Sequence record: PZ386954.1
Length of the DNA stretch: 42,659 nucleotides
From: a phage
Strand: one strand, 5' to 3'
Below are positions 3,999-30,398 of the stretch, in pieces. Below the pieces are notes generated by a model, which was not told where the DNA came from, made no database searches, and worked only from the letters and a program-made list of their open reading frames with translations. The position numbers and the translations under genes were made by a program. The stretch's first letter is position 1. Every line of letters begins with the position of its first letter.

Positions 3999-4194
3999 GG
4001 GTATCCGAAAGCTGAGGCAATGAACAGGCCGTGGGTGCAATACCCCGGCTTGAAAATTGACTATTTGTACGTGCCCCTCCCTCGACCCAAATGACCGCGC
4101 GTACCCCCATGACGTGTGCGCGGTTTAGCCTCGCGACGTGCGCGGTATTGTCTCGCGTGCGCTGCGCGGCGCGTCGAAAGGATTGCCTGCGTTC

Positions 4195-4600
4195 GGTATA
4201 GCTCGTGCGTGTCGCGTTTCATCGTCTGCCGTGTGGCGTGCTGTGCGCTGTCCTGCTGGCTGTGCTGTGTGCCTGCTGTGTGGGCTATCGGTGGCGGTGT
4301 GGTGCTGTCCTGTGGGGACGCTCTGCGCTGGCTGTGCGGTGCTGTGCGCTGCGCGTGGTCGGGCGGGTATCTGTCTCTTTTCGTGGCGCGGCGTGGTGCT
4401 GTGTGGTGGCGGTGGTGGCGGTGGTGCTGTCCTGTCTGCTGGTCTACTGTCTGCGCCTCCAGCTCTGCGCGTCATGCTCTGCTCCTGTCTGTCACCTGTC
4501 CTACTGCCTTCACGTTCTGCCGTCTGTCAGTCCTACGGCCTGCCATCCGTCATCCGTTCGGCGCTCGCTTGTTTCGGCTGCGCCGCGCTCGCTCTGCGTA
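4195..4600 (+). repeat. non-coding, extremely A-depleted (G/T/C-only) tract with short degenerate repeats (GCTGTGCG, GGTGGCGGTGGTG, CTGTC); probable genome-terminus or terminal-repeat region
   Basis: by direct count only 4 A residues in 4201-4440; overlapping ORFs in all frames here are low-complexity composition artefacts. Confidence 0.7.
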
Positions 4601-4605
4601 TCTAG

Positions 4606-4634
4606 CGATACTATATCACTATAGACACTTTCAT
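4606..4634 (+). promoter_or_regulatory. conserved element CGATACTATATCACTATAGACACTTTCAT; contains TCACTATAG identical to T7 promoter -8..+1; inverted near-identical copy at 25549-25580
   Basis: TCACTATAG at 4616-4624; about 130 bp upstream of the first sigma70 promoter, a T7 phiOL-like position. Confidence 0.45.
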
Positions 4635-4760
4635 TTACTTATTGATTTATAAGGATTTATTTACTGTATTCAATCGGTATTCTATCCAGTGTTAGGATTA
4701 TCTAATCAAACTTTAATCCTAATGATTACAGTAACTTATCACTTTTCTTGAAAATAATAC

Positions 4761-4789
4761 TTGCAAAGGTATTCGGTATTTGCTGTAAT
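4761..4789 (+). promoter_or_regulatory. sigma70-type early promoter P1 (TTGCAA-N17-TGcTGTAAT)
   Basis: -35 TTGCAA 4761-4766, 17-bp spacer, extended -10 TGc + TGTAAT 4784-4789, AT-rich upstream (AAAATAATAC). Confidence 0.7.
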
Positions 4790-4866
4790 TCATCTCGCCG
4801 GACAACACAGCGTCAACGTGTTGGACGGTGTAGGACGGTAACACTGCTCTTTAACAATCTGGTGTG

Positions 4867-4895
4867 TTGACAAGGCAAGCTCACTATGCTGTAAT
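4867..4895 (+). promoter_or_regulatory. sigma70-type early promoter P2 (TTGACA-N17-TGcTGTAAT)
   Basis: -35 TTGACA 4867-4872, 17-bp spacer, TGcTGTAAT ending 4895. Confidence 0.75.
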
Positions 4896-5004
4896 GCTTC
4901 CACGTCAGCCAGACAAGCCAAATAGTGATGGATAAACACGTTAACACCCACGCAGGCTAACTGGTACGGTTTAATTAACTCTGAACGGGCGCTGATTAAA
5001 TCGG

Positions 5005-5033
5005 TTGACAGGATGAAACGAGTATGCTGTAAT
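5005..5033 (+). promoter_or_regulatory. sigma70-type early promoter P3 (TTGACA-N17-TGcTGTAAT)
   Basis: -35 TTGACA 5005-5010, 17-bp spacer, TGTAAT 5028-5033. Confidence 0.75.
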
Positions 5034-5085
5034 ACACACCAGATTGACAGGGCAGCAAGCCAGTCAGTCAGAAGTAAAAAGGTAG

Positions 5086-5114
5086 TTGACAAGCTGAATA
5101 CGATGTGATGTAAT
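5086..5114 (+). promoter_or_regulatory. sigma70-type early promoter P4 (TTGACA-N17-TGaTGTAAT)
   Basis: -35 TTGACA 5086-5091, 17-bp spacer, TGTAAT 5109-5114. Confidence 0.75.
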
Positions 5115-5570
5115 CAGCACCGAGTTGAAAGGATGGAAAGCATCCTGCTCTGAGTGAACGCAAACTGGCCGCGTAGTGTCACGGCTCACTGGGTATCCGC
5201 CGCAGGTTGGAACTGGGTGAGGCATCGCCGAAAGGCAACGGTATCGCAACAATGCTAACGCCGTAGGGGTAGCGCCTGATGCAAGGTAACGGAGAAGCGC
5301 GATAGACGCAGCGCAGTATCAGCACAATACCAAACGTCTTATAAGGCGCGGAGTGAAGCGGGTAGGTAGGCAAGCTGGTAACGGTGAGCCGGACTGCTGG
5401 AGGACTCCTGAGAGTGGATGCAGACAATATCCACGGCGCGAAATGGGCGGGGCGATTTTTCAGGGTAGTGAATCCGACAAGCCAATCAATGCCAACGAGT
5501 GCAGACTGTACGGCGCGTCACAATGGGTTCACTATCCACCTGAAAATAGCCAACAACTGGAGAAATTAAT

Positions 5571-5960
5571 ATGTACCGTATCTATGCAAGCGCATATCGT
5601 CAGGGCAACGCTGAGTCAGTCAATCTGGCGCTTCATTGCAAGGCACTGCGAACGGTGCAGGACATGTTCGGAGTGGTTCCGGTCACACTGACAGGCAAGT
5701 TCGACAATGCGTATGAGTTAAGCATGGTCTTCCCTGTCGATGGAATCTACGAAATCCGACAGGCTGTTAAGCTGTTTTGTAAAGCCTTCGAACAGGACTG
5801 CATCATGGTAGTGACCAAAGACGACGATGCAATCTTCATGGACTCACCGTATCCGGGTAAGCCTGCTGGCAAGCTGGTCAGCAAGACTAACGAGGAAATG
5901 GAAGCCGGGCAGCATACCGCTTGGACTTACGATGGTGAGCAATTTTGGGTAGTGGAGTAA
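5571..5960 (+). CDS. first early protein (129 aa), function unknown
   Basis: ATG with GGAG Shine-Dalgarno; first ORF downstream of the early promoter cluster. Confidence 0.65.
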   Translation: MYRIYASAYRQGNAESVNLALHCKALRTVQDMFGVVPVTLTGKFDNAYELSMVFPVDGIYEIRQAVKLFCKAFEQDCIMVVTKDDDAIFMDSPYPGKPAGKLVSKTNEEMEAGQHTAWTYDGEQFWVVE

Positions 5961-6133
5961 GGAGCATGACTATGTTCACTGCACTGTGTGTTATTGCGGC
6001 GGCGTGTTGGGTTATTGACCAGCGCCTGCCTAAGCGAGCCTGATATGTGGGACTTACTGGTAGCGTTATTCTGGTTCGTCTTTGCAGGCTTGTGGATTTA
6101 CTGGCTGACTCGTCCCAAATTATGGTGACTGCC

Positions 6134-6157
6134 TAATGCGTCTTGCGAGGCGCATTG
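6134..6157 (+). other. intergenic RNA hairpin, 8-bp stem, loop TTGCGA (UGCG tetraloop if closed by U-A)
   Basis: AATGCGTC / TTGCGA / GGCGCATT inverted repeat; no downstream U-tract. Confidence 0.55.
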
Positions 6158-6192
6158 TGAAGTAACCAACCAACAACCCGACGAGGTGTATC

Positions 6193-6720
6193 ATGACTAC
6201 TGTTAAATATACTGCATTCAAAGACGCTGCCGCTCTGGACAAGGCCATTGAGTCTACCGTCAAGAAGGCGCACTCACTGCGTACCGACATCCAGAACGTT
6301 GCTGTCGGCATCATCCTGCACGCTTACCATCACGGCGACTACACTCGTGCTGAATCCTTCGTGAATCAGCTCGGTCAGGGTGTCCGTGGCAAGGCGCTGG
6401 TAGACTGGTTCGTCAAGTTCGGCGGCCTGATTATCGGTGAGAACGGCGGGAAACAGGGTTTCATTGGCTGGCAGGGCGCTGAGTATATCAAGGCGAACAT
6501 TGACACGGCCAAAGCCACTATGTGGTGGAGCCTGAAACCGGAGCAGACCTTCGAAGGCTTCGACCTGCAAGATGCGCTCGAAAAGCTGATTGCCAAAGCT
6601 GAGAAGGCGCTGAACAAGGCCAATGAGCTGCGTCACGAAGGCAAGGACGAAGACGCGAACAAGGTAGTGGTGCCGCAGAACGTCCTCGACCTGCTGCGCA
6701 AGGCTAAACAGGCTGCCTAA
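6193..6720 (+). CDS. early protein (175 aa), C-terminal coiled-coil-like region, function unknown
   Basis: ATG with GAGG SD; follows conserved hairpin. Confidence 0.65.
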   Translation: MTTVKYTAFKDAAALDKAIESTVKKAHSLRTDIQNVAVGIILHAYHHGDYTRAESFVNQLGQGVRGKALVDWFVKFGGLIIGENGGKQGFIGWQGAEYIKANIDTAKATMWWSLKPEQTFEGFDLQDALEKLIAKAEKALNKANELRHEGKDEDANKVVVPQNVLDLLRKAKQAA

Positions 6721-6795
6721 GCGGGATTGACTCAAGCCAGTGTCAAGGCGCTGGCTTTATGGCAATTCTGCCCCAACCTATTCGGAGTATTACCC

Positions 6796-7077
6796 ATGAC
6801 TATCAAAACTGTAACTGCATTCGTGACCAAGAAAGCTGGCGAACTGTATGGCTTCGCTGTTTCCCTGAACGAAGGCCAGTACCTGCACCACGTCCGTGAA
6901 GAAGGCGAGCCGACTGAGGCCGTAGCCATCCTCGAAACGTTGCAGGGTATCCCGCTGCCGCACGAGTTCATCATCATGCTCGCTGAGCAGGACGAAGACG
7001 ACCTGCGACTGCGCCACGGTGACGACCTGACGATTGAAGAAATCGGCACGTTCGAAGCAGAAGTAGACGACGAGTAA
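6796..7077 (+). CDS. small acidic early protein (93 aa)
   Basis: ATG at 6796 with GGAG SD 8 nt upstream (track ORF 6727 begins at TTG); D/E-rich, C-terminal EAEVDDE. Confidence 0.6.
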   Translation: MTIKTVTAFVTKKAGELYGFAVSLNEGQYLHHVREEGEPTEAVAILETLQGIPLPHEFIIMLAEQDEDDLRLRHGDDLTIEEIGTFEAEVDDE

Positions 7078-7086
7078 GCGTTGTCC

Positions 7087-7112
7087 TGCTGCATCCTTGC
7101 GAGGGTGCAGCG
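7087..7112 (+). other. intergenic RNA hairpin, 10-bp stem, loop TTGCGA, followed by conserved leader cassette
   Basis: TGCTGCATCC / TTGCGA / GGGTGCAGCG; then GGCAATAGTGCC mini-hairpin and ...CCGAGGGTTTTAATATG. Confidence 0.6.
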
Positions 7113-7148
7113 TGGCAATAGTGCCTTACTCAATCCGAGGGTTTTAAT

Positions 7149-7490
7149 ATGAGCATCAAACTTGTAATCCTGACCAACATCGCAGCTTCCGCATTCGGCG
7201 CAGACGTACCGGAAGAAGCGCGTACTGCTGAGTGGGTGGCGTTCACCTCCGACGACGAGGGCTACCTGATTGCAGGCCGCAACCGCGACGGCGACTCTGC
7301 CGAGGACATCGTGGCGCACTTCGACGCTGACGAAGGCTTCGCTGGGTTCGCAGCTTCTGGCCTGCCGCTGGAACTGTTCGGCATGATGAACGGCGTGCCT
7401 TTCATCGACCGTGAGAAGCTGGGCGCAGACGTGTCTGTCACCGAGCTGAAAGTGTACGGCGAAGAAGATGACGTAGACTTCTCTGCGTGA
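7149..7490 (+). CDS. small acidic early protein (113 aa)
   Basis: ATG after conserved leader cassette with GAGG SD; strongly D/E-rich. Confidence 0.65.
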   Translation: MSIKLVILTNIAASAFGADVPEEARTAEWVAFTSDDEGYLIAGRNRDGDSAEDIVAHFDADEGFAGFAASGLPLELFGMMNGVPFIDREKLGADVSVTELKVYGEEDDVDFSA

Positions 7491-7497
7491 TACCTTA

Positions 7498-7519
7498 CTG
7501 CCTCGTTGCGACGGGGCAG
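7498..7519 (+). other. intergenic RNA hairpin, 8-bp stem, loop TTGCGA, followed by conserved leader cassette
   Basis: CTGCCTCG / TTGCGA / CGGGGCAG; then GGCAATCATGCC and ...CTGAGGATTTATTATG. Confidence 0.6.
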
Positions 7520-7555
7520 TGCGGCAATCATGCCCCAATCTACTGAGGATTTATT

Positions 7556-7831
7556 ATGTCCACTATCAATGTGTTTTCCCTGAATAACGGCGGTCTGGCT
7601 TTCATCGTTGGCGAGACTGTTGACAATGCACCTTCACTGGGTGTGCAGCCGAAGCCGGACGCAAGCCATGACGAGGTGATTGGCGAGGTGCGCGAGGCGC
7701 TGGAAGACCTCGGCGGTATGCTGATTGCCATTCAGGGTGGCAAGCTGTCGGTTGAAAAGCTGAATGCACTGGAGCCTCGCTTCATCACCAGCTTTGAAGC
7801 TGACAACGTAGACGCGGCTGACTTCGAGTAA
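7556..7831 (+). CDS. small acidic early protein (91 aa)
   Basis: ATG after conserved leader cassette; D/E-rich, ends ...NVDAADFE. Confidence 0.65.
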   Translation: MSTINVFSLNNGGLAFIVGETVDNAPSLGVQPKPDASHDEVIGEVREALEDLGGMLIAIQGGKLSVEKLNALEPRFITSFEADNVDAADFE

Positions 7832-7866
7832 GCCGACCACTAACCCACCAGTAACAGGAGAACAAC

Positions 7867-8103
7867 ATGGCTAAGTTTGAACTGGTACGCTTCACCGACC
7901 CGAACGATGGTGAAGTAACCTATGCACAATTCGCTGACGACCGCCAGCAGGTGGCAGTGTACACCAGCAAGACCTTTGCTTTCGAACAGTTCGGTGAGGA
8001 ACTGCACTTTGACAGCGTGAGCTACGTGCTGCTGTCCGGTGGTGAGTACGCCGATGCAGTGCAGGCCGCACTGGATGAAGGTGAAGTCATCAAGACTGCG
8101 TGA
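7867..8103 (+). CDS. small acidic early protein (78 aa)
   Basis: ATG with AGGAG SD; leader ...CTAACC...AACAACATG shared with the gene at 9073. Confidence 0.6.
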   Translation: MAKFELVRFTDPNDGEVTYAQFADDRQQVAVYTSKTFAFEQFGEELHFDSVSYVLLSGGEYADAVQAALDEGEVIKTA

Positions 8104-8110
8104 TTTCTGT

Positions 8111-8134
8111 CAGCCCATCCATAGCGGTGGGCTG
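8111..8134 (+). other. intergenic RNA hairpin, 9-bp stem, loop CATAGC, followed by conserved leader cassette
   Basis: CAGCCCATC / CATAGC / GGTGGGCTG; then GGCAATCATGCC and ...CTGAGGGTTTTACCATG. Confidence 0.55.
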
Positions 8135-8171
8135 TAGGGCAATCATGCCACAACTAACTGAGGGTTTTACC

Positions 8172-8456
8172 ATGGCTAAAGTAACTGCATACTACTCCGC
8201 ACAAGAGAAAGACATCGTGGCTGTTGTTGGTGACGGCTTCGAAGAAGGCAACTATGCGCTGTGCATTTCCGGCTGCAAAGAAGTACCGAAGCTGAACACG
8301 GTTGATGATGCTGTGGCTGCGCTGCCGTCGCTGCAAGCTGACATCGAACGCATGGGTGAGCTGGCCTTCCTGCTGCACGGTGGTTCGCTGAACGCTACTG
8401 CTTCGGTTGACATGCCTGCCAAGGGCTACGAAGAAGTCGGTAGCTTCGAGGTCTAA
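8172..8456 (+). CDS. small acidic early protein (94 aa)
   Basis: ATG at 8172 directly after conserved leader cassette with GAGG SD. Confidence 0.6.
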   Translation: MAKVTAYYSAQEKDIVAVVGDGFEEGNYALCISGCKEVPKLNTVDDAVAALPSLQADIERMGELAFLLHGGSLNATASVDMPAKGYEEVGSFEV

Positions 8457-8458
8457 GC

Positions 8459-8794
8459 ATGGCGTTGCATCCGGTCAAGGTATTCCGTGGGCCTGACATT
8501 ACGGATGGGCAAGACGTGGCGGTACTGCTGTACCGCCTGCCCGATGGTCAGGAAGGGCTGGTCGTCATCGACCAGATTGAAATCTTAGGGCAGCAGATGT
8601 TGACGAGTGAGGCGAGCGACGAGCAAATCATCGAACGCTTCAAGGCGTACGCCGGGCGCAGGCCATTCATCATCGACCTGCTTAACGAGCTGCACTACAG
8701 CGCCGCGCCGCTGGCTATCCAGACGTGGCTCAAGATTCTCACTCCCATCTACGAGGGTGAGATGTATCTGTTTGGTATTGACAACGAGGAATAA
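8459..8794 (+). CDS. early protein (111 aa), function unknown
   Basis: ATG 2 nt after upstream stop with GAGG SD. Confidence 0.6.
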   Translation: MALHPVKVFRGPDITDGQDVAVLLYRLPDGQEGLVVIDQIEILGQQMLTSEASDEQIIERFKAYAGRRPFIIDLLNELHYSAAPLAIQTWLKILTPIYEGEMYLFGIDNEE

Positions 8795-8796
8795 TC

Positions 8797-9042
8797 ATGG
8801 GTAAGAAAGTAACTTTGAAAGTAGTTAAGCGCCGCCCCGGATTCACCGTGGGTACTGAGTACCCGGCAGTGCTGATTGCTGAGGGCGAGAATCTGGTCAA
8901 GGCATTCCCTAAGCTGGCCTCGGTGTACGGCAAGGGCGCTGAGGATGTGGCAGGCTACGAAACTGTAGCCGTACTGGACGAGCGTGGCCATCCGTGTGAC
9001 TTCTTCACGCAGGGCTATCACGACTGGTTCGAAATCGTTTAA
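8797..9042 (+). CDS. small early protein (81 aa), paralog of the product of 9073-9315
   Basis: shares TVGTEYPAVLIAEGENL with TIGKEYAALLVEAGEEI in the next gene; GAGGA SD. Confidence 0.65.
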   Translation: MGKKVTLKVVKRRPGFTVGTEYPAVLIAEGENLVKAFPKLASVYGKGAEDVAGYETVAVLDERGHPCDFFTQGYHDWFEIV

Positions 9043-9072
9043 CCAACCACCTAACCAAGAGAGGGTAACAAC

Positions 9073-9315
9073 ATGGCACGTTCTATTCTGATTCGCATCA
9101 TCGGCCACACCGCACAGCCGTCCCATTTCTCCGGCGCAGTGCGTGACACTACCATCGGTAAAGAGTACGCCGCTCTGCTGGTTGAAGCTGGCGAAGAAAT
9201 CCCGGACGGCTGGGAAACTGACGAGCAAGGCATCGCGTTTGTTGATGACGTGGGTGATGACTGCTTCGCATACAGCTCGGCGCACCTCGGACACACCATC
9301 GAAATCGTCGAGTGA
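9073..9315 (+). CDS. small acidic early protein (80 aa), paralog of the product of 8797-9042
   Basis: conserved block with the previous gene; GAGGG SD. Confidence 0.65.
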   Translation: MARSILIRIIGHTAQPSHFSGAVRDTTIGKEYAALLVEAGEEIPDGWETDEQGIAFVDDVGDDCFAYSSAHLGHTIEIVE

Positions 9316-9321
9316 TAAGCT

Positions 9322-9345
9322 ACAGCCTCTGCTTGCGGGGGCTGT
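9322..9345 (+). other. intergenic RNA hairpin with CTTGCG-containing loop
   Basis: ACAGCCTC...GGGGCTGT inverted repeat downstream of the stop at 9315. Confidence 0.5.
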
Positions 9346-9371
9346 GTCATTATCAAACGAGCGAGGTGAGC

Positions 9372-9524
9372 ATGAGCGGCAGCACATACAATGCGCACGC
9401 CAACCAGATAAGCTACGCAGGGTACTGCGCACTGGGTGGGGCGAGCAACCCGAACCTAATGAGCCGGGCGGTGTATCTCGGCGGTCACTACATGCACCAC
9501 GAATACTATTTAATCAGGGGGTAA
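9372..9524 (+). CDS. small protein (50 aa), Tyr/His/Gly-rich, function unknown
   Basis: ATG with GAGGTGAG SD; short, so uncertain. Confidence 0.4.
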   Translation: MSGSTYNAHANQISYAGYCALGGASNPNLMSRAVYLGGHYMHHEYYLIRG

Positions 9525-9526
9525 CT

Positions 9527-9811
9527 ATGGTACTGGCATCTGAAAGTATTATCGAACAGGCTGGCGCAATCCGTGAAGCTGAGCATCTGCGTGGGGTAGC
9601 CGCAACGCTCGGTCACTGTGCTGGCAACGGCGGTCTGCGTGGGCATTCAGTCGGCGGCGTATTTCCCTGCGTGATATTCTCGCGGGGCAACCCACATGAA
9701 CACCTCGACTGGTGCTTCCTCGCACCGAACGGCGACGAGTTCGACGGCTTCGTAAGTTATGAAGATGCGTATGCAGCCGCGCAGGTATGGCTGGAACAAC
9801 GAGAGGTGTGA
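9527..9811 (+). CDS. hypothetical protein (94 aa)
   Basis: ATG with AGGGGG SD; tightly packed with neighbours. Confidence 0.55.
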   Translation: MVLASESIIEQAGAIREAEHLRGVAATLGHCAGNGGLRGHSVGGVFPCVIFSRGNPHEHLDWCFLAPNGDEFDGFVSYEDAYAAAQVWLEQREV

Positions 9812-9813
9812 GT

Positions 9814-10113
9814 ATGAGTAAGTGGAAAGATAACGTAGCCAAGCTACAGCGTTGGTTGGTCGATGCCTTTGGCGCACCGCCAGCCCCTGTGCATGACGAC
9901 TCGCCGTTCCAATACGTCGAGAAGAAAACGCAGGAGCTTAAGCTGGGTGACTACGTGGTAGCATACGGCGGTTACATCCAGCGCATCGGTGCCGTGGAGT
10001 ATGACGGCAGCCGACTGGTCGTAACCAAGTTAGGGCATGGGCCTGAGCGTGAGTGGCAGGCGTACGAAGATGACGAGTTCACCGTCCGTATTCTGAAAGA
10101 GGATAACAAATGA
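9814..10113 (+). CDS. hypothetical protein (99 aa)
   Basis: ATG at 9814 with GAGAGG SD (track ORF extended upstream). Confidence 0.55.
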   Translation: MSKWKDNVAKLQRWLVDAFGAPPAPVHDDSPFQYVEKKTQELKLGDYVVAYGGYIQRIGAVEYDGSRLVVTKLGHGPEREWQAYEDDEFTVRILKEDNK

Positions 10114-10622
10114 TTGACTTCAAAACTTTTAACCCGAAGCAGTTGGAAGTGATTAAGCTGCTGGCTGCACACATCGACAGCGAGCCTATGCTCAGTGAGC
10201 TGGTAGAGTTCAAGGGTGGCTACCTGCCGAAGCAAAGTTACATCGGCGCGGTGCGTGCCGGGCGCGAGGGTATGCTGGACATTGTTCCGGCCACTCGTAC
10301 TGGTGCGCTGCTGGCACGCAACGTCAGCGTCATCATCGGCATGAACATGCGAGCTGCGCAGGCAGACGGTGACGAGGAGTTGCAGGTCGAGCTGCGTCTG
10401 GCTGGTAAGATGGCAGCGCAGGCTATGTCCTCGGTTGATATTGCTGAGAAGTATCACGACTGGTACATGGCGTGCTCCAATGTGCCGGGGGATATTAGCG
10501 AGACGGCGCTGGGTCTGCTGTTCGTGGGCGAGTTCATTGACACAACGATGCGTACTATCAAGGGCAACGTTGAGCAGATGATTCGTGCAATGCTGGAGTC
10601 GAAGAATGCAACGCGACACTAA
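10110..10622 (+). CDS. hypothetical protein (170 aa)
   Basis: ATG overlapping upstream stop; AAGAGGA SD. Confidence 0.6.
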   Translation: MIDFKTFNPKQLEVIKLLAAHIDSEPMLSELVEFKGGYLPKQSYIGAVRAGREGMLDIVPATRTGALLARNVSVIIGMNMRAAQADGDEELQVELRLAGKMAAQAMSSVDIAEKYHDWYMACSNVPGDISETALGLLFVGEFIDTTMRTIKGNVEQMIRAMLESKNATRH

Positions 10623-10776
10623 GCTGGCCGTAGTCAAATCACCCACCGGATTATTCTGGTGGGTTGTTAATAAACTCCAGCCGAATAAACCTTTGGCTGT
10701 GCGTGACACAAAGTGGGAAGCCGAGAGTAAACTCGAAGACCTGCAACGCATAGTGCGTAATGTTATTCCGGTGTAG
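10606..10776 (+). CDS. hypothetical small protein (56 aa)
   Basis: ATG at 10606 with GGAG SD; overlaps end of upstream gene. Confidence 0.4.
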   Translation: MQRDTKLAVVKSPTGLFWWVVNKLQPNKPLAVRDTKWEAESKLEDLQRIVRNVIPV

Positions 10777-10786
10777 TCATCTACTC

Positions 10787-10811
10787 ATGCCTGTTATTAT
10801 TTAGCAGGCAT
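10787..10811 (+). terminator. hairpin with AT-rich loop at the early/middle boundary, directly upstream of the ATGAAGGTGTCTATA motif
   Basis: ATGCCTG / TTATTATTTAG / CAGGCAT. Confidence 0.35.
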
Positions 10812-10830
10812 TATGAAGGTGTCTATATTG
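10812..10830 (+). promoter_or_regulatory. copy of the ATGAA(A/G)GTGTCTATA motif family, candidate phage-RNAP promoter or regulatory box
   Basis: TATGAAGGTGTCTATATTG, 18 of 20 identical to the 25549 copy; about 20 nt upstream of the 10850 gene. Confidence 0.4.
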
Positions 10831-10849
10831 GCCAACGTGAGGATGAAAT

Positions 10850-11053
10850 ATGTTCCGAGTTATATTGTTGTTCCTGTTCCTCGTTATTATTTGGGGAGCT
10901 TTATGGATGGCGCTGGCAGTGTTCGCACTGATACCAGCCATCGGTGAGTCGGCTACTTCTTCGGTGGGTACGCTGCTCGGTATGCTGGTAGGCTGGGGCT
11001 TGATGCACGTAAGCCTGAGCGTAGGTCAGAGCCGGAGGTGGATTAGATGGTAA
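10850..11053 (+). CDS. small membrane protein (67 aa)
   Basis: highly hydrophobic, predicted TM helices; GAGGATGA upstream. Confidence 0.55.
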   Translation: MFRVILLFLFLVIIWGALWMALAVFALIPAIGESATSSVGTLLGMLVGWGLMHVSLSVGQSRRWIRW

Positions 11054-11487
11054 AGCCTAAGTACAAAATCGGTGACGAGATTGTAGGTCACAACGACACT
11101 GGCACCCGGTCAGGTAAGCTGGGTATCATCGCATGGGTTAACCCTGACCGCCGAGCATGGGAGCGCAGTGGTGAGACCCGCTACATCGTGAGCTGGATTG
11201 GTGAGCGGCTGAATGCACAGCCGGACATCAGCCACTACAAGTCTGATTGGCTGGAGGATAACACCAGTCTGGTCAGCCGCAAGCCAGAAGACCGGGGCCG
11301 CTACATGTGCTTGGTCGAAGGCAGCAATGCACCGCCGAAGGTTGAGCACATCACTGAACTGGATGCGCGGGAAGAAGCTGAGCGTTTGGCTGAGCGCAAC
11401 GGAGGTACTGTCCGTGTGCTGCAAGTTGTAGCCAGCGTGAAGATGAAGAAGAAGATTCAGTACATACCAGAGTGGGATAACGAATGA
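11047..11487 (+). CDS. hypothetical protein (146 aa)
   Basis: ORF with SD; no motif recognised. Confidence 0.6.
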   Translation: MVKPKYKIGDEIVGHNDTGTRSGKLGIIAWVNPDRRAWERSGETRYIVSWIGERLNAQPDISHYKSDWLEDNTSLVSRKPEDRGRYMCLVEGSNAPPKVEHITELDAREEAERLAERNGGTVRVLQVVASVKMKKKIQYIPEWDNE

Positions 11488-12194
11488 TGAAATCAGTGAG
11501 CAACGACGAGTGGCCGGAGCTGGCGAAGCGTCTGCCAGTAGGACAAAAGCGAAGGACGTTTCACAGTTGCTCGCGGTCATTCAGCAAGACCAACTTTGAG
11601 TATGGCCGTGCGCCGGATTACATCTGGTGCAAGTGCCATCGCTGTGGGTACAGCCGCAAGCATGACCTGACCCATGCAGTGTACGTACCGCCAGCCGAGG
11701 TGCAGGTGAAGGTGCCGACTGATGTTGTGCCTATCACTGAGGTGATTGCCAAGCAGCCCCGCCTTCTCCTGCCTGTGCTGGAGCGCGAGAACCTGATGCC
11801 GCACCTGTCTATCCTGACTGCAAGCCCAACGTATGGCAGGCTGTATCTGCCGGACGACACGGGCAGCTACTGTGGTCTGGATTACACCGGGCGGCAGTTC
11901 ATACCATGGCGCTCACCGCACAAGCATAGCTTGGCGATGAAGGTACACCCGCGAGGTGAGGCTGAGACGAATTGCCTGTGGGTATACGGTGAGGTGGACG
12001 AGTATCTCCAGCAGGTACGTGACGGGGGCAACTGTGCTTTCGTGCCGAACGTGGATGACACGACATTGCAGGCACTGGTAAGTGTGACGCTGGCCTATGG
12101 CTACAACCTCGTGGTCATCTGCCACCACCCAAGTGCTCAACGTATCCGCAGGGAACTGCGTGTGGTAGGGCGAGTGCAGATAGTAGGAGAGTGA
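11484..12194 (+). CDS. zinc-finger DNA replication protein, possibly DNA primase
   Basis: H-x-C...C-x-C-x2-C cluster (HSCSRS...CKCHRCGY) near the N-terminus; position immediately upstream of the helicase; no clear TOPRIM motif. Confidence 0.4.
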   Translation: MMKSVSNDEWPELAKRLPVGQKRRTFHSCSRSFSKTNFEYGRAPDYIWCKCHRCGYSRKHDLTHAVYVPPAEVQVKVPTDVVPITEVIAKQPRLLLPVLERENLMPHLSILTASPTYGRLYLPDDTGSYCGLDYTGRQFIPWRSPHKHSLAMKVHPRGEAETNCLWVYGEVDEYLQQVRDGGNCAFVPNVDDTTLQALVSVTLAYGYNLVVICHHPSAQRIRRELRVVGRVQIVGE

Positions 12195-22852: not shown

Positions 22853-23086
22853 ATGAGTCGTTATCAAAGAGCCATTGAGGACACAGTGGTTGACCGTAAA
22901 GTGTGCGGTGCCTGCATGGGTAGCGGCACCTACCGTGGCATGTTGATTGGTGGGCAGGTAGTCCTGATGGATTGCGAAGCCTGCGGCGGTACGGGTACGA
23001 ATGACCCGGCACTGCAACATTCTGTACTGAGTGACTTGGGCCAGCGCAAACAAGCGCAGCCGGGATATGACGAACCAACGGAGTAA
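22853..23086 (+). CDS. small zinc-finger protein with two CxxCxGxG motifs (DnaJ Cys-rich-like)
   Basis: CGACMGSGT and CEACGGTGT; AGGAGG SD; immediately upstream of RNAP. Confidence 0.6.
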   Translation: MSRYQRAIEDTVVDRKVCGACMGSGTYRGMLIGGQVVLMDCEACGGTGTNDPALQHSVLSDLGQRKQAQPGYDEPTE

Positions 23087-25521
23087 TGATGGACTTACTT
23101 GCAGAGCAGATTCGACTTGAAGAAGAAGCACGAGCCAGACACCGCGAGGGCTGGCTGGATAATATCAAAGAGGCGATGGCCAGTGGCCGGGCCGGGTCGG
23201 TGCCGTTGCTCCAGCGTATGATGGTAGAGGCGTATCCTCTTGTCGAAGCTGCGATGCAAGAAACCCTGAGCGAAACGACCCGTGGATATGGTGCGCAGTA
23301 CCGGACGTACATGCGTGAGATTGGCACCAAAGCGTGTGCCTCTCTCGCACTGAGCATGGCGGTGTCCGGTGCTGCGTCGGAGCAGGCGGTACTGAGTCTG
23401 CTCAAGAGCATGGGCAAGGCACTGATGGCTGAGGTGGTGTACCTCCGGGCGAAGCAGACCGGGCCACAGCAGGCGGCGTACATGGAGCGCGTTAAGCAGG
23501 ACGTGAAGAAGTCTCGCTCGAAGTCAGCGAACCACGTTTACAATAAAGCGCGTGCGTCGGCGGCGAACGTTGGGGTGGAGATTGATGTGCTACCGCAGCG
23601 TGCGCTGATTACCATTGGCAAGTTGATGATGAAGTGCGTCGAGCCAACTGGTCTGGTGTCTACGATTCGCGTCGGCGGCAACCAGCGCCAGCGCGGTACG
23701 GCACACTTCGCACTGCATGAAGATGTGCTGGCTACGATGAATGACTGGCTGGACATGCCGCGTGCCGATGGCATGTGCTGCCCACCGCTGATTATCCCAC
23801 CGAAGCAGATTGCCCCGAATGGTCGCAGTGGTATGTGGCATTCCGATGGGCAGGCAGCGATGTACCGGGTAATGAGTCGCATGAACCACAAAGGGTATCG
23901 TGCATTGAACGTTGACCCGACCCCCGTTATAGAGCCGTGTATGATGCTCAGCAGCGTTCCGTACCGAGTTAACCCAATGGTACTGGAGTTCCTGCGAACG
24001 AACCGTACAGGCGTTATGGGGCTGCCTGTGCCACCTCGTGAGCCTACACTTCCGTTTACCATCCCCGCTGGTGTGAGCTTTGCGCAGTACATCAGCAAGT
24101 TCCCACCAGAGATGCAGCAGCAGATGGATGCCGAAGCTCATGAGTACAAGGTGAAGACTCGCTTGTATTACAATGAGTTGCGTAAGTTCACGTCGCAGAT
24201 GCTGGCGTTGAATGGTGCAGTCAAAGAGGCAGACAGGTATGCGCAGTACGATAGGATTTATCTCCCGACTTACGCCGATACGCGGGGCCGAATTTATTAT
24301 TCTTCGACCCTTAACCCTCAGTCTATCGACGCGGTGCGAGCGCTGCTTGAGCTTGCGGAACCAGTGGCTCTCGGAAGCGAGGGGCTATTCTGGCTCAAGG
24401 TTCATGTTGCGAATTGCTTCGGCTACGACGCAACAGACTTCGACGACCGGGCGGCGTGGACGGACAAAACACTCCCCCGACTACGTGAGGCGTGCCGTCT
24501 TCCAGAGGCATTTGATTCGTTCTGGTCTGAGGCCGATAGCCCTATCTCAGCGTGGGCTGCATCTGTTGAACTCATTCGAGCTATCGACAGCGGAAGTCCT
24601 GAGACTTATCCCTGCCGAGTGGTTACGCAGTGGGATGCTACATGTTCAGGTCTCCAACACCTCAGCGCAATGTTACGCGATGAAGTTGGGGGTGCTGCTG
24701 TCAATCTTATCAATAGCGTGGGGCGAAAGGCAGACATATATCTCAAGACGGCAGCAGCGGCGATGCAGGCTCTTGAAGATAGTGAAGCGCAGTCACCGAC
24801 GCAGATGGGTACGTGGCTTGTTTCAATCGGCATTGTCCGGGCTATGGCCAAGAAGCCAGTGATGACCTACGTGTACGGGGCAACCCGTCACGGTATGGTG
24901 GACTACTACTGCCTGTACCTGCGAGAGAACCGGGTCAAGCTGCCGGACGGCAAGAGCCTACTGGAGTGTGCGCAGTTCATCGCAGAGTTCATGTGGAATG
25001 CAATCCCGCGTGTCGTGCCGAAAGCGGCAGAGCTGATGGCGTGGTTGCAGGCTATCGCGGTGGAGGCGGCGGCTAACGGCGAGTACGTGGAAATCATTGC
25101 GCCGTCAGGGTTGCGGGTGGTTAACCTGTACCAAGCCAGCAAGGAGACGATGCTCAACAACATCAACCTCATGGGTATCCACAGCATTAAGCTGCGCGAG
25201 TATCTGGACAAGCCGGACGGCAGGAAGTGCGCTGCTGCGATTGCTCCTAATTTCGTACACGCTATGGATGCCAGCCACATGATGAAGGTGTTGTGGGAGA
25301 TGTGGAATAACGGGGTGTTCATGGTGTCCATCCATGACTCGTTCGGTGTTGCTGCTGCTCATGCCGGGTTACTTCACAAGGTCATTCGTGAAAAGTTCGT
25401 GCAGATGTATGAGCAACATGACCCAATTCAACAACTTGCTGTGCGATACAATGCTGTTGCACCTGAACGGGGCAATCTGGACATCCAGCTTGTGAAACAA
25501 TCAAGCAAGTTTTTCTGCTGA
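23086..25521 (+). CDS. single-subunit DNA-dependent RNA polymerase (T7 gp1-like)
   Basis: 811 aa; catalytic VSIHDSFGV motif and overall T7-class RNAP layout; located directly before the structural genes as in phiKMV-like phages. Confidence 0.9.
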   Translation: MMDLLAEQIRLEEEARARHREGWLDNIKEAMASGRAGSVPLLQRMMVEAYPLVEAAMQETLSETTRGYGAQYRTYMREIGTKACASLALSMAVSGAASEQAVLSLLKSMGKALMAEVVYLRAKQTGPQQAAYMERVKQDVKKSRSKSANHVYNKARASAANVGVEIDVLPQRALITIGKLMMKCVEPTGLVSTIRVGGNQRQRGTAHFALHEDVLATMNDWLDMPRADGMCCPPLIIPPKQIAPNGRSGMWHSDGQAAMYRVMSRMNHKGYRALNVDPTPVIEPCMMLSSVPYRVNPMVLEFLRTNRTGVMGLPVPPREPTLPFTIPAGVSFAQYISKFPPEMQQQMDAEAHEYKVKTRLYYNELRKFTSQMLALNGAVKEADRYAQYDRIYLPTYADTRGRIYYSSTLNPQSIDAVRALLELAEPVALGSEGLFWLKVHVANCFGYDATDFDDRAAWTDKTLPRLREACRLPEAFDSFWSEADSPISAWAASVELIRAIDSGSPETYPCRVVTQWDATCSGLQHLSAMLRDEVGGAAVNLINSVGRKADIYLKTAAAAMQALEDSEAQSPTQMGTWLVSIGIVRAMAKKPVMTYVYGATRHGMVDYYCLYLRENRVKLPDGKSLLECAQFIAEFMWNAIPRVVPKAAELMAWLQAIAVEAAANGEYVEIIAPSGLRVVNLYQASKETMLNNINLMGIHSIKLREYLDKPDGRKCAAAIAPNFVHAMDASHMMKVLWEMWNNGVFMVSIHDSFGVAAAHAGLLHKVIREKFVQMYEQHDPIQQLAVRYNAVAPERGNLDIQLVKQSSKFFC

Positions 25522-25525
25522 TAAA

Positions 25526-25577
25526 TAGTGATATGTATCATTGACTTATATGAAAGTGTCTATAGTGATATGTATCA
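25526..25577 (+). repeat. 15-bp direct repeat TAGTGATATGTATCA, two copies (25526-25540 and 25563-25577)
   Basis: read directly in the RNAP-to-late-gene intergenic region. Confidence 0.8.
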
Positions 25578-29349: not shown

Positions 29350-30342
29350 ATGGCTGATAACACCTATACCCCAAATCAGTTCCGTCCACACTGGGGTGGC
29401 GCGAACTCTGATAACGACATCCACCTTGAGGTGTATGACCGTGATGTTCAAACCCAGTTCATCTACAACTCCATCTTCCGTTCCGGTCTGACCAACTTCA
29501 AGTCTGTGGCTAACCAGTCCAACACTTGGCGTGGCGACCGTCTCGGCTCTGTGACTGTTAAGGGTCGTCGCTCTGGCGAGGCGCTGGACAACCAGCCAGT
29601 TCGCTCTGAGAAACTGATTGTCACTGTGGATACCGTGTCTTACATCCGTATCCCGATTGACTATCAGGACGACTGGACTGCGCCGGACTTCCGCGCTGAG
29701 CTGACCCGTAACATGGGTACTGCACAGGCGAAGGCGTTCGACCAAGCGCACGTCATCCAGCTCCAGAAGTCTGCTGACTTCGTGCCTCCGGCTTCTCTGG
29801 CTGGTGCGTTCAACGCAGGTATCAAGGAGCAGGTCACTCTGACTGGCACCGTGGCATCTGAGGAAGATGATGCGTCTGCGCTGGTACACGGCCACAAGAA
29901 AGCTATCGAGGCGTTCATTCGCCGCGATGCTGACCTTGGCCGACTGGTTACGCTGATTGACCCGGCGTGGTTCAGCATTCTGCTGGAGCACAAGAAACTG
30001 ATGAACGTTGAGTTCACTGGTGGTCGTGGTGTCAACGACTTCGCAATGCGTCGTGTTGCGTATGTCAACGGTATCCGTATCATCGAGAGCAACGCGTTCC
30101 CGCAGGCGGCAATCACCGACCACATCCTCGGCCCTGACTTCAACGTCACCGCCGACGAGATTCAGCGCAAGATGATTATCTTCGACCCGTCTCTGGCTCT
30201 GGTCACTGTCGAAGCCCAGCCGCTGTTCAACCGCGTATGGGATGACGAACGTGAACTGACCAACGTTCTGGATAGCTTCCACATGTACACCGTGGGTCAG
30301 CGTCGTCCAGACGTGGTTGCTGTAGTTACCACTGAGTCCTAA
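29350..30342 (+). CDS. major capsid protein
   Basis: 330 aa; T7/phiKMV-like capsid size and position; followed by terminator-like hairpin. Confidence 0.85.
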   Translation: MADNTYTPNQFRPHWGGANSDNDIHLEVYDRDVQTQFIYNSIFRSGLTNFKSVANQSNTWRGDRLGSVTVKGRRSGEALDNQPVRSEKLIVTVDTVSYIRIPIDYQDDWTAPDFRAELTRNMGTAQAKAFDQAHVIQLQKSADFVPPASLAGAFNAGIKEQVTLTGTVASEEDDASALVHGHKKAIEAFIRRDADLGRLVTLIDPAWFSILLEHKKLMNVEFTGGRGVNDFAMRRVAYVNGIRIIESNAFPQAAITDHILGPDFNVTADEIQRKMIIFDPSLALVTVEAQPLFNRVWDDERELTNVLDSFHMYTVGQRRPDVVAVVTTES

Positions 30343-30352
30343 TGGTAAACTC

Positions 30353-30375
30353 GAAGCCCTTCTCTGAGGGGCTTC
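30353..30375 (+). terminator. hairpin downstream of the major capsid gene (T7 Tphi-like position)
   Basis: GAAGCCC(TT) / CTCTG / (A)GGGGCTTC stem-loop followed by U-rich TATGATTAT. Confidence 0.45.
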
Positions 30376-30398
30376 TATGATTATCACTGGGAGGTTTT

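Follow-up and report, generated by a model that had tools for sequence, protein, structure and literature searches.

Putative T7-type RNase III processing signals at the early gene junctions of a Bonnellvirus coliphage

Several small genes in the early region of the phage genome in sequence record PZ386954.1 are separated by copies of one intergenic cassette, in which a stable hairpin is followed by a short palindromic block, GGCAAT-NN-TGCC (NN denoting two variable bases), a ribosome-binding leader and a start codon, and the question is what this repeat does between these genes. Tandem gene duplication was considered as its source and rejected, since the proteins encoded 3' of the cassettes are without detectable mutual similarity. 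The window, that is, the whole stretch of DNA analysed (42,659 bases), is a complete coliphage genome of Bonnellvirus (Autographiviridae); its early region (5900-9500, the region queried) is 98% identical to that of Escherichia phage altidsur, and J8-65, Lidtsur and LF82-23 are relatives of the genome. At each of the junctions lies a conserved, covarying, two-turn hairpin of the sense strand, which has the geometry of the RNase III sites of phage T7 in all cases and their flanking sequences in some. We propose that the cassettes, as a class, are probably RNase III processing signals of the T7 type, carried by the early polycistronic mRNA. The first-pass annotation of the region had suggested functional RNA elements, such as processing sites or 3'-end stabilisers; this core proposal gains support from the present analysis, which favours RNase III among the nucleases then named, but the loop does not appear to be the recognised feature.

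Structure of the cassettes

The window contains four GGCAAU cassettes, A to D, and one related element without the block (9313-9355). Minimum free energy (MFE) and centroid folds of all five gave in each case a single long irregular hairpin of 18-25 base pairs (bp), with folding z-scores of -3.9 to -4.9 (-3.3 to -5.0 over all the elements described below). The lower stem, of 7-9 bp, joins the region of the upstream stop codon (GCG-UGA-UU, GCGGGAUUG or GAGUAAG) to the 3' part of the block, the partner strand being AAUCAUGC or CAAUUCUGC in the block or CUUACUC just past it. A small internal loop or bulge separates it from a G+C-rich upper stem-loop of 9-11 bp that carries a U-G wobble and by itself amounts to -15 to -18 kcal/mol; the hairpins are capped by stable tetraloops, the loop of D being CAUAGC.

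All the elements lie on the plus strand. Cassette A (6721..6771) has a lower stem 6721-6729 x 6763-6771, an internal loop ACUC / UAUGG and an upper stem 6734-6743 x 6748-6757 with loop CAAG; the upstream stop codon (6718-6720) adjoins the hairpin, and MFE and centroid structures agree (-27.7 kcal/mol, z -4.2). In the other cassettes the stop codon is within the lower stem. Cassette B (7072..7131; -33.0 kcal/mol, z -3.9) pairs 7072-7085 with 7114-7131, including UAA at 7075-7077, below an upper stem 7087-7097 x 7102-7112, and cassette C (7485..7533; -28.8 kcal/mol, z -4.5) pairs 7485-7491 with 7527-7533, including UGA at 7488-7490, below an upper stem 7496-7506 x 7511-7521; both have the loop UGCG (TTGCGA in the DNA) and are interrupted between the stems by 1 nucleotide (nt) and 2 nt. 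Cassette D (8098..8148; -29.7 kcal/mol, z -4.9) consists of a lower stem 8098-8108 x 8137-8148 with UGA at 8101-8103, a 2x2 loop plus a bulge, and an upper stem 8111-8119 x 8126-8134. The related RNase III-like hairpin without GGCAAU block (9313..9355; z -4.7) has a lower stem 9313-9319 x 9348-9355 with UGA at 9313-9315, an upper stem 9321-9331 x 9336-9346 and loop CUUG.

Folding recovered the stable hairpins that the first-pass annotation had marked at 6134-6157 (10 bp), 7087-7112, 7496-7521 (containing its 7498-7519) and 9321-9346 (11 bp each), confirmed the TTGCGA loop, a UGCG tetraloop, in the first three, the fourth having CUUG, and placed in all four the U-G wobble near the loop, which matches the UA/UG determinant in the distal box of RNase III substrates. 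The near-identical leaders of GGCAAT-NN-TGCC, Shine-Dalgarno sequence and ATG reported at 7114, 7523 and 8138 are present as well. The succession of TTGCGA hairpin and leader holds for 7087 and 7498 but not for 6134, and the leader at 8138 follows the loop CAUAGC (8111-8134); the three cassettes counted are real, but the count is four, 6721-6772 before the gene at 6796 having been missed. The hexamer TTGCGA as such is not enriched in the window (17 copies, about 25 expected), and what is non-random is its placement at hairpin tips. The hairpin at 6134..6157 (z -3.3), which follows a tiny open reading frame (ORF) ending at 6128, has its 10 bp if the U-A pair closes, and its lower pairing is weak; only the hairpin core matches a covariance model of the cassettes (12.1 bits), and its status as an RNase III site is uncertain. 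Its orthologue in phage LIMEzero has the loop UACG with a compensatory closing pair.

Exact matches to GGCAAT-NN-TGCC occur four times in the genome, at 6761, 7114, 7523 and 8138, and nowhere else. Each opens a leader on the plus strand: 6761..6798 in A (block GGCAATTCTGCC, a C/A-rich spacer, Shine-Dalgarno sequence GGAG, ATG at 6796), 7114..7151 in B (block GGCAATAGTGCC, ATG at 7149), 7523..7558 in C (block GGCAATCATGCC, ATG at 7556) and 8138..8174 in D (again GGCAATCATGCC, ATG at 8172), the last three having a spacer and the Shine-Dalgarno sequence GAGG. Early leaders without a cassette (6160-6192, 7832-7866 and 9043-9072) are likewise C/A-rich and G-poor, for example AACCAACCAACAACCC and CCAACCACCUAACCAAG, which suggests an operon-wide style of unstructured, translation-enhancing leader.

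Conservation in related phages

The early regions of 16 Bonnellvirus genomes, of LIMEzero (Waewaevirus) and of one IMG/VR contig (an uncultivated virus genome, UViG) were compared, and the cassette was found again at orthologous junctions, in 52 distinct sequences. In a covariation alignment of 29 distinct cassettes (from Bonnellvirus, LIMEzero and the UViG), 89.5% of the cells of the extended structure are paired, as against 73% in shuffles, none of 500 of which reaches that value, and 38-45% in slid-partner controls. The upper stem is paired in 99.6% of cells, with compensatory changes in six of its eight pairs, and the lower stem in 81%, with compensatory changes in both NN columns, which combine with the upstream strand as UA, GC and CG in one column and as GC, GU, AU and UA in the other. 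Cassette C shows compensatory stem changes among the relatives; in cassette D of LIMEzero a change of the stop codon itself, from UGA to UAA, is compensated by a change of NN from CA to UA. The covariation of the stems that had been read from the different stem sequences within the window is also found between genomes. Because G-U pairs are frequent and the cassette model scores 58-69 bits with the plus strand but no more than 11-13 with the minus strand, the structure is one of the sense RNA only.

Since NN covaries with the upstream stop-codon region, the block belongs to the lower stem of the long hairpin; such covariation would be unexpected if NN lay in the loop of a mini-hairpin. An independent GGCA-N4-TGCC mini-hairpin in the uncut RNA, as had been proposed, is therefore not what the alignment points to: NN pairs with the stop-codon region, and the cassette folds as one hairpin, not two. 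The palindrome is real, but its GGCA and UGCC halves never vary, and their invariance is evidence neither for nor against a mini-hairpin helix. The argument that had been built on loop conservation also falls away. Sixteen loop sequences occur across the 52 distinct cassettes, UGCG being the commonest (19 of 52), and orthologous sites exchange UGCG for CAAG, CACG, UCCG, AAC or UACG.

More distant relatives (phiAS7, 25AhydR2PP and MA13) yielded no GGCAAU cassettes and no T7-type matches. Two rearrangements were seen in the closer ones: mellemsur has at about 4730-4790 a chimeric hairpin whose 5' arm is of type E, which in Lidtsur follows gp2, and whose 3' arm is that of cassette D, with the intervening genes lost, and in forsur (5209-5370) cassettes B and C lie just 150 nt apart. 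These arrangements indicate recombination within cassettes.

Relationship to the RNase III sites of phage T7

The early intergenic regions of T7, where its RNase III sites lie, were folded for comparison, and sites R0.3, R0.5, R1, R1.1, R1.3, R4.7 and R18.5 were compared with the cassettes; the T7 GenBank and RefSeq feature tables displayed no RNase III site features. The closest likeness is that between cassette A, GCGGGAUUG-ACUC-AAGCCAGUGU...GCGCUGGCUU-UAUGG-CAAUUCUGC (core AAGCC..GGCUU), and T7 R0.5, GAGUGAUAG-ACUC-AAGGUCGCUC...GAGUGGCCUU-UAUGA-UUAUCACUU (core AAGGU..GGCCUU). The two agree in the length of the lower stem (9 bp), the size of the internal loop (4/5 nt) and the length of the upper stem (10 bp), and cassette A has GACUCAAG...CUUUAUG in common with R0.5, R1.1 and R18.5. 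An asymmetric internal loop of 4 nt and 5 nt is also a feature of T7 R1.1, which undergoes one primary cut in vivo (PMC6121014). The flanks ACUC(A/G)AG...CU(U/C)UAUG(A/G) are common to T7, cassette A and two further sites of the window, at 10772 and 30338.

A covariance model made from the seven T7 sites alone (the T7-only model, R2) was applied to both strands of the whole window with filters off. Its best five matches are all at plus-strand gene junctions, namely after the capsid gene (30338-30395, 34.0 bits, E 2e-5), at cassette A (6719-6777, 32.7 bits, E 4e-5), at the end of the early operon (10772-10831, 27.1 bits, E 9e-4), at cassette D (8096-8154, 18.8 bits, E 0.09) and at the 9322 element (9313-9355, 18.5 bits, E 0.11), the E-values being rough. 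Elsewhere the model matched four junctions in LIMEzero and six in J8-65, and one each in the UViG and in Salmonella phage Spp16 (Melnykvirinae); the Spp16 match (6927-6981) precedes the primase gene. The model built from the cassettes (R1) gave 58.5 bits for cassette B, which is in its training set, and 20.7 bits (E 7e-4) for the element at 9303-9358, which is outside it; applied to T7, it produced 13 weak matches, R18.5, R1.1, R0.5 and R4.7 among them. Rfam gave no match at E <= 1 within 4000-12000.

The geometry of the cassettes is more constant than their sequence type. In 46 of the 52 the block starts 12-13 nt past the loop, whichever the type of hairpin, and in 8 of 11 T7 sites the cut positions fall in the same structural place, 12-13 nt past the loop. 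The U-G wobble, with U on the 5' arm, is found in nearly all 52 cassettes, 2-4 bp from the loop. Its G lies 9-11 nt 5' of the block, which compares with 9-11 nt before the cut in T7 R1.1 and R0.3, the register of the box being provisional. Substrates of Escherichia coli RNase III typically comprise two helical turns, as set out by Pertzev and Nicholson (PMC1540722); internal loops limit the enzyme to one bond and so leave a protective 3' hairpin, UA or UG, with a stringent U-G, is optimal in the distal box near the loop, and the reactivity of a T7 model substrate does not require the tetraloop sequence (PMC1540722). The wobble is accounted for by its match to the distal-box preference, and 16 different loops can be tolerated because the enzyme does not require a particular tetraloop sequence.

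Genomic context

Every gene of the window is on the plus strand. A long non-coding stretch (about 4000-5570) contains the genome ends and four sigma-70-type promoters, at 4761, 4867, 5005 and 5086 on the plus strand (span 4761-5114; TTGACA or TTGCAA, 17 nt, TGTAAT); J8-65 has identical copies, and the annotated host promoters of LIMEzero are similar to them. They are followed by a S-adenosylmethionine (SAM) hydrolase gene, about 12 small early genes (6193-10776), replication genes, the RNA polymerase gene (23086-25521) and the structural genes, the order being phiKMV-like, in that the polymerase gene comes late in the middle region. All the cassettes and hairpins of the early region lie between plus-strand genes, 3' of the promoters at 4761-5114 and 5' of the first phage-promoter-like motif, at 10813. 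Given the promoters and the gene order, the cassettes sit in an early operon expected to be transcribed by the host polymerase, and we infer that host RNA polymerase makes an early polycistronic transcript that spans them from the promoters at about 4761-5114.

Two further T7-type RNase III-like hairpins are found on the plus strand. One, at the end of the early operon (10772..10827, z -5.0), overlaps a phage-promoter-like motif, ATGAAGGTGTCTATA; the other follows the major capsid gene (30338..30391, z -3.8) and has a tail, UAUGAUUAUCAC, that T7 R0.5 carries in identical form. The J8-65 orthologue of the latter (24358-24415) scores 37.6 bits with the T7-only model. In LIMEzero, hairpins at the junctions orthologous to both are annotated as factor-independent terminators; the post-capsid one was not matched by the T7-only model, and the one at 7255-7284, orthologous to 10772, gave a marginal match (7239-7296, 19.8 bits, E 0.1). 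As the hairpin at 7255-7284 resembles a processing site rather than a terminator, a correction of its annotation is suggested.

The phage-promoter-like motif ATGAA(A/G)GTGTCTATA has three copies, at 10813-10827 and 25550-25564 on the plus strand and at 4620-4634 on the minus strand. The first two occupy the positions of LIMEzero promoters, and the third faces leftward to the terminal region, with all the genes behind it; all three recur, each in its orientation, in LF82-23 (4928-, 11333+, 25624+). The promoters annotated in LIMEzero, TTTAAAGGCAATCACTAAGG and TATAAAGGCAAGCACTATGA (L021, 7294-7313; L025, 12531-12550), have GGCAA(T/G)CAC in common with the cassette block; at the corresponding positions Bonnellvirus promoters have GTGTCTATA instead. 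Immediately 3' of the RNA polymerase gene, the late promoter-like motif is flanked by a 15-nt direct repeat, TAGTGATATGTATCA (25526-25540 and 25563-25577), and a related sequence, TAGTGATAT, adjoins the leftward copy of the motif (minus strand, about 4621).

Next to the genome end, the non-coding segment 4230-4600 is very poor in A on the plus strand (14 A in 371 bases) and is composed of short GGTG/CTGT-type repeats. Two tiny hydrophobic ORFs, 5966-6043 and 6045-6128 (translations read by eye, MTMFTALCVIAAACWVIDQRLPKRA and MWDLLVALFWFVFAGLWIYWLTRPKLW), which separate the SAM hydrolase gene from the 6134 hairpin, could encode small membrane peptides.

Proposed function and alternatives

If the cassettes are RNase III processing signals, host RNase III would make a single cut in each, on the 3' side of the internal loop and no more than about 2 nt from the G that opens GGCAAU, that is, near 6760/6761, 7113/7114, 7522/7523 and 8137/8138. 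The upstream message would then keep a 3'-terminal hairpin (-15 to -18 kcal/mol) as a block to 3'-5' exonucleases, and the downstream message would have 33-35 nt ahead of its AUG, comprising an unstructured leader rich in C and A and a strong Shine-Dalgarno sequence, the early multi-gene transcript being chopped into stable single-gene messages. More speculatively, the freed GGCAAU-NN-UGCC might refold into a 5'-terminal mini-hairpin that shields the new 5'-monophosphate end. Of the individual elements, cassette A and the hairpins at 10772 and 30338 are those assigned with more confidence; we are less sure of B and C, to which the enzyme might bind without cutting.

Several observations weigh against this interpretation. 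Cassettes B, C and D have bulges of 1-2 nt and no clear 4/5 loop, and G-C pairs near their predicted cuts could act as antideterminants, leading to binding without cleavage. The T7-only model missed B and C in the whole window, and its matches to D and to the 9313 element are marginal. None of the matches of the cassette model to T7 is individually significant, all being below threshold, and the E-values of both models, which were quickly calibrated, are rough. The T7 cleavage coordinates used here, reportedly those of Dunn and Studier (1983), were checked for internal consistency alone. The literature searched, on Bonnellvirus, LIMEzero and phiKMV-like phages, contained nothing on RNase III sites, promoters or terminators and no RNA-end or cleavage data for the Bonnellvirus group.

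The block itself presents a further difficulty. In three cassette types (J8-65 2576, Lidtsur 1097 and LIMEzero 3610) it lies just outside a complete T7-like hairpin, and its outer G and C are invariant though the lower stem does not need them; for these two reasons pairing alone does not explain its invariance, which is thus only partly accounted for, and some constraint beyond pairing must act on it. We therefore also considered a 'cut-and-refold' version of the RNase III reading, in which the block would be a module of its own that builds the RNase III site and then refolds or binds a protein, setting the stability or translation of the downstream message, while the cassettes would also serve as recombination joints for swaps of early genes. 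We put this forward only tentatively and think it rather improbable. Taken in isolation as a 5' end, GGCAAU-NN-UGCC folds into a hairpin of 4 bp whose pairing starts at the very first nucleotide (about -3.5 kcal/mol, pairing probability 0.75-1.0); this mini-hairpin is weakened in two LIMEzero copies (CGCC), and three cassette types would not have it at the 5' end.

Plain hairpins that stabilise 3' ends produced by another nuclease, such as RNase E, or that pause polymerases or ribosomes, with no part played by RNase III, would account for upper stems so stable on their own, for the 6134 hairpin with its little lower-stem pairing and for the failure of the T7-derived model to recognise B and C, but they leave unexplained a lower stem that covariation maintains through the stop codon, the two-turn length, the T7-identical flanks ACUC...UAUG(A/G) and the fixed 12-13 nt between loop and block, and we consider them unlikely. 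Intrinsic terminators or attenuators between the early genes come to mind where G+C-rich hairpins directly follow stop codons, all the more as the annotators of LIMEzero named the element orthologous to 10772 a factor-independent terminator. No cassette hairpin, however, is followed by a U-tract, a scan of the region for terminators came back empty, and stopping after every gene would silence the early genes downstream; we give this explanation almost no credence.

Could the block instead act in the DNA, as a weak promoter of the phage's single-subunit RNA polymerase or as the operator of a dimeric protein? It is a 12-bp palindrome, invariant in about 50 copies and fixed at 33-35 nt from the ATG, it shares GGCAA(T/G)CAC with the LIMEzero promoters, and one copy is two mismatches from the late-promoter core of the window. 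That copy, the best of those in the cassettes, has 10 of the 12 promoter core bases and is the only one to do so; the phage's own promoter-like motif is different and sits at the LIMEzero promoter positions, the block stays constant across genera whose promoters differ, and the cassettes have neither the AT-rich upstream part nor the TATA-like melting part, being G+C-rich where melting is expected. With NN covarying with an RNA partner and G-U pairs making the element strand-specific, we regard a DNA-level site as very improbable. The more specific idea of a phage-polymerase promoter, prompted by GGCAATCAC common to the LIMEzero promoters and the block, was rejected, because the phage's own motif differs and NN covaries as RNA. 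A sigma-54 or sigma-70 promoter in the block was also rejected: spacing and hexamers do not fit on reading, no -35/-10 pair is seen in the cassettes, and a scan of 6100-9400 for sigma-70-like promoters and terminators found none. Nor do we think there is much chance that the cassettes are chiefly recombination joints that shuffle small early genes, in the manner of the mobile regulatory cassettes known as promoter early stem-loops (PeSLs). They flank small non-paralogous genes in the most variable part of these genomes (PMC7552041), and the mellemsur chimera and the closely spaced B and C of forsur fit such a role, but the definition of PeSLs calls for a strong sigma-70-like promoter and an effective terminator (PMC2839356), and recombination at repeats is to be expected whatever their function, which makes it more likely a consequence than the purpose.

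The RNase III reading, if correct, explains most of the intergenic conservation in the early regions of Bonnellvirus and Waewaevirus phages, where the cassettes are unannotated though RNase III sites have long been known from T7, and it extends T7-style RNase III punctuation of early transcripts to enterobacterial phages with a phiKMV-like gene order. It opens no new question and is a tidy extension of textbook T7 biology. It does provide precise predicted cut sites, and the cassettes would be ready-made inter-cistron insulators for engineering these phages or reusing their early genes.

Comparison with known systems

The 5' untranslated region of ompA reportedly stabilises its mRNA by a 5'-terminal stem-loop (Emory, Bouvet and Belasco 1992; Mackie 1998). 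A cut just 5' of GGCAAU would likewise leave a GGCA/UGCC hairpin without unpaired 5' nucleotides; unlike stabilisers of the ompA type, this hairpin has just 4 bp and about -3.5 kcal/mol, and the likeness is wholly inferred.

The cassettes are like the PeSLs of T4-type phages (PMC2839356, PMC4122927) in being short composites of a stem-loop and a conserved block, in flanking small early genes of unknown function, in their place in a hypervariable region and in the evidence of recombination; they differ in having neither promoter nor terminator and in that their conserved block sits in an RNA helix.

The nearest known counterparts are the RNase III sites of T7. The 3' strand in the cassettes is a lineage-specific, invariant GGCAAU-NN-YGCC, whereas T7 has GAUU(A/G).., cassettes B to D are without T7-like flanks and have smaller bulges, and the phage has a phiKMV-like gene order, not that of T7. 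In both phages, however, the elements are intercistronic in a polycistronic transcript and take the form of an irregular hairpin of about two turns, in which the upstream stop codon belongs to the lower stem and an internal loop leads to an upper stem-loop with a stable tetraloop, which in T7 R1 is also UGCG.

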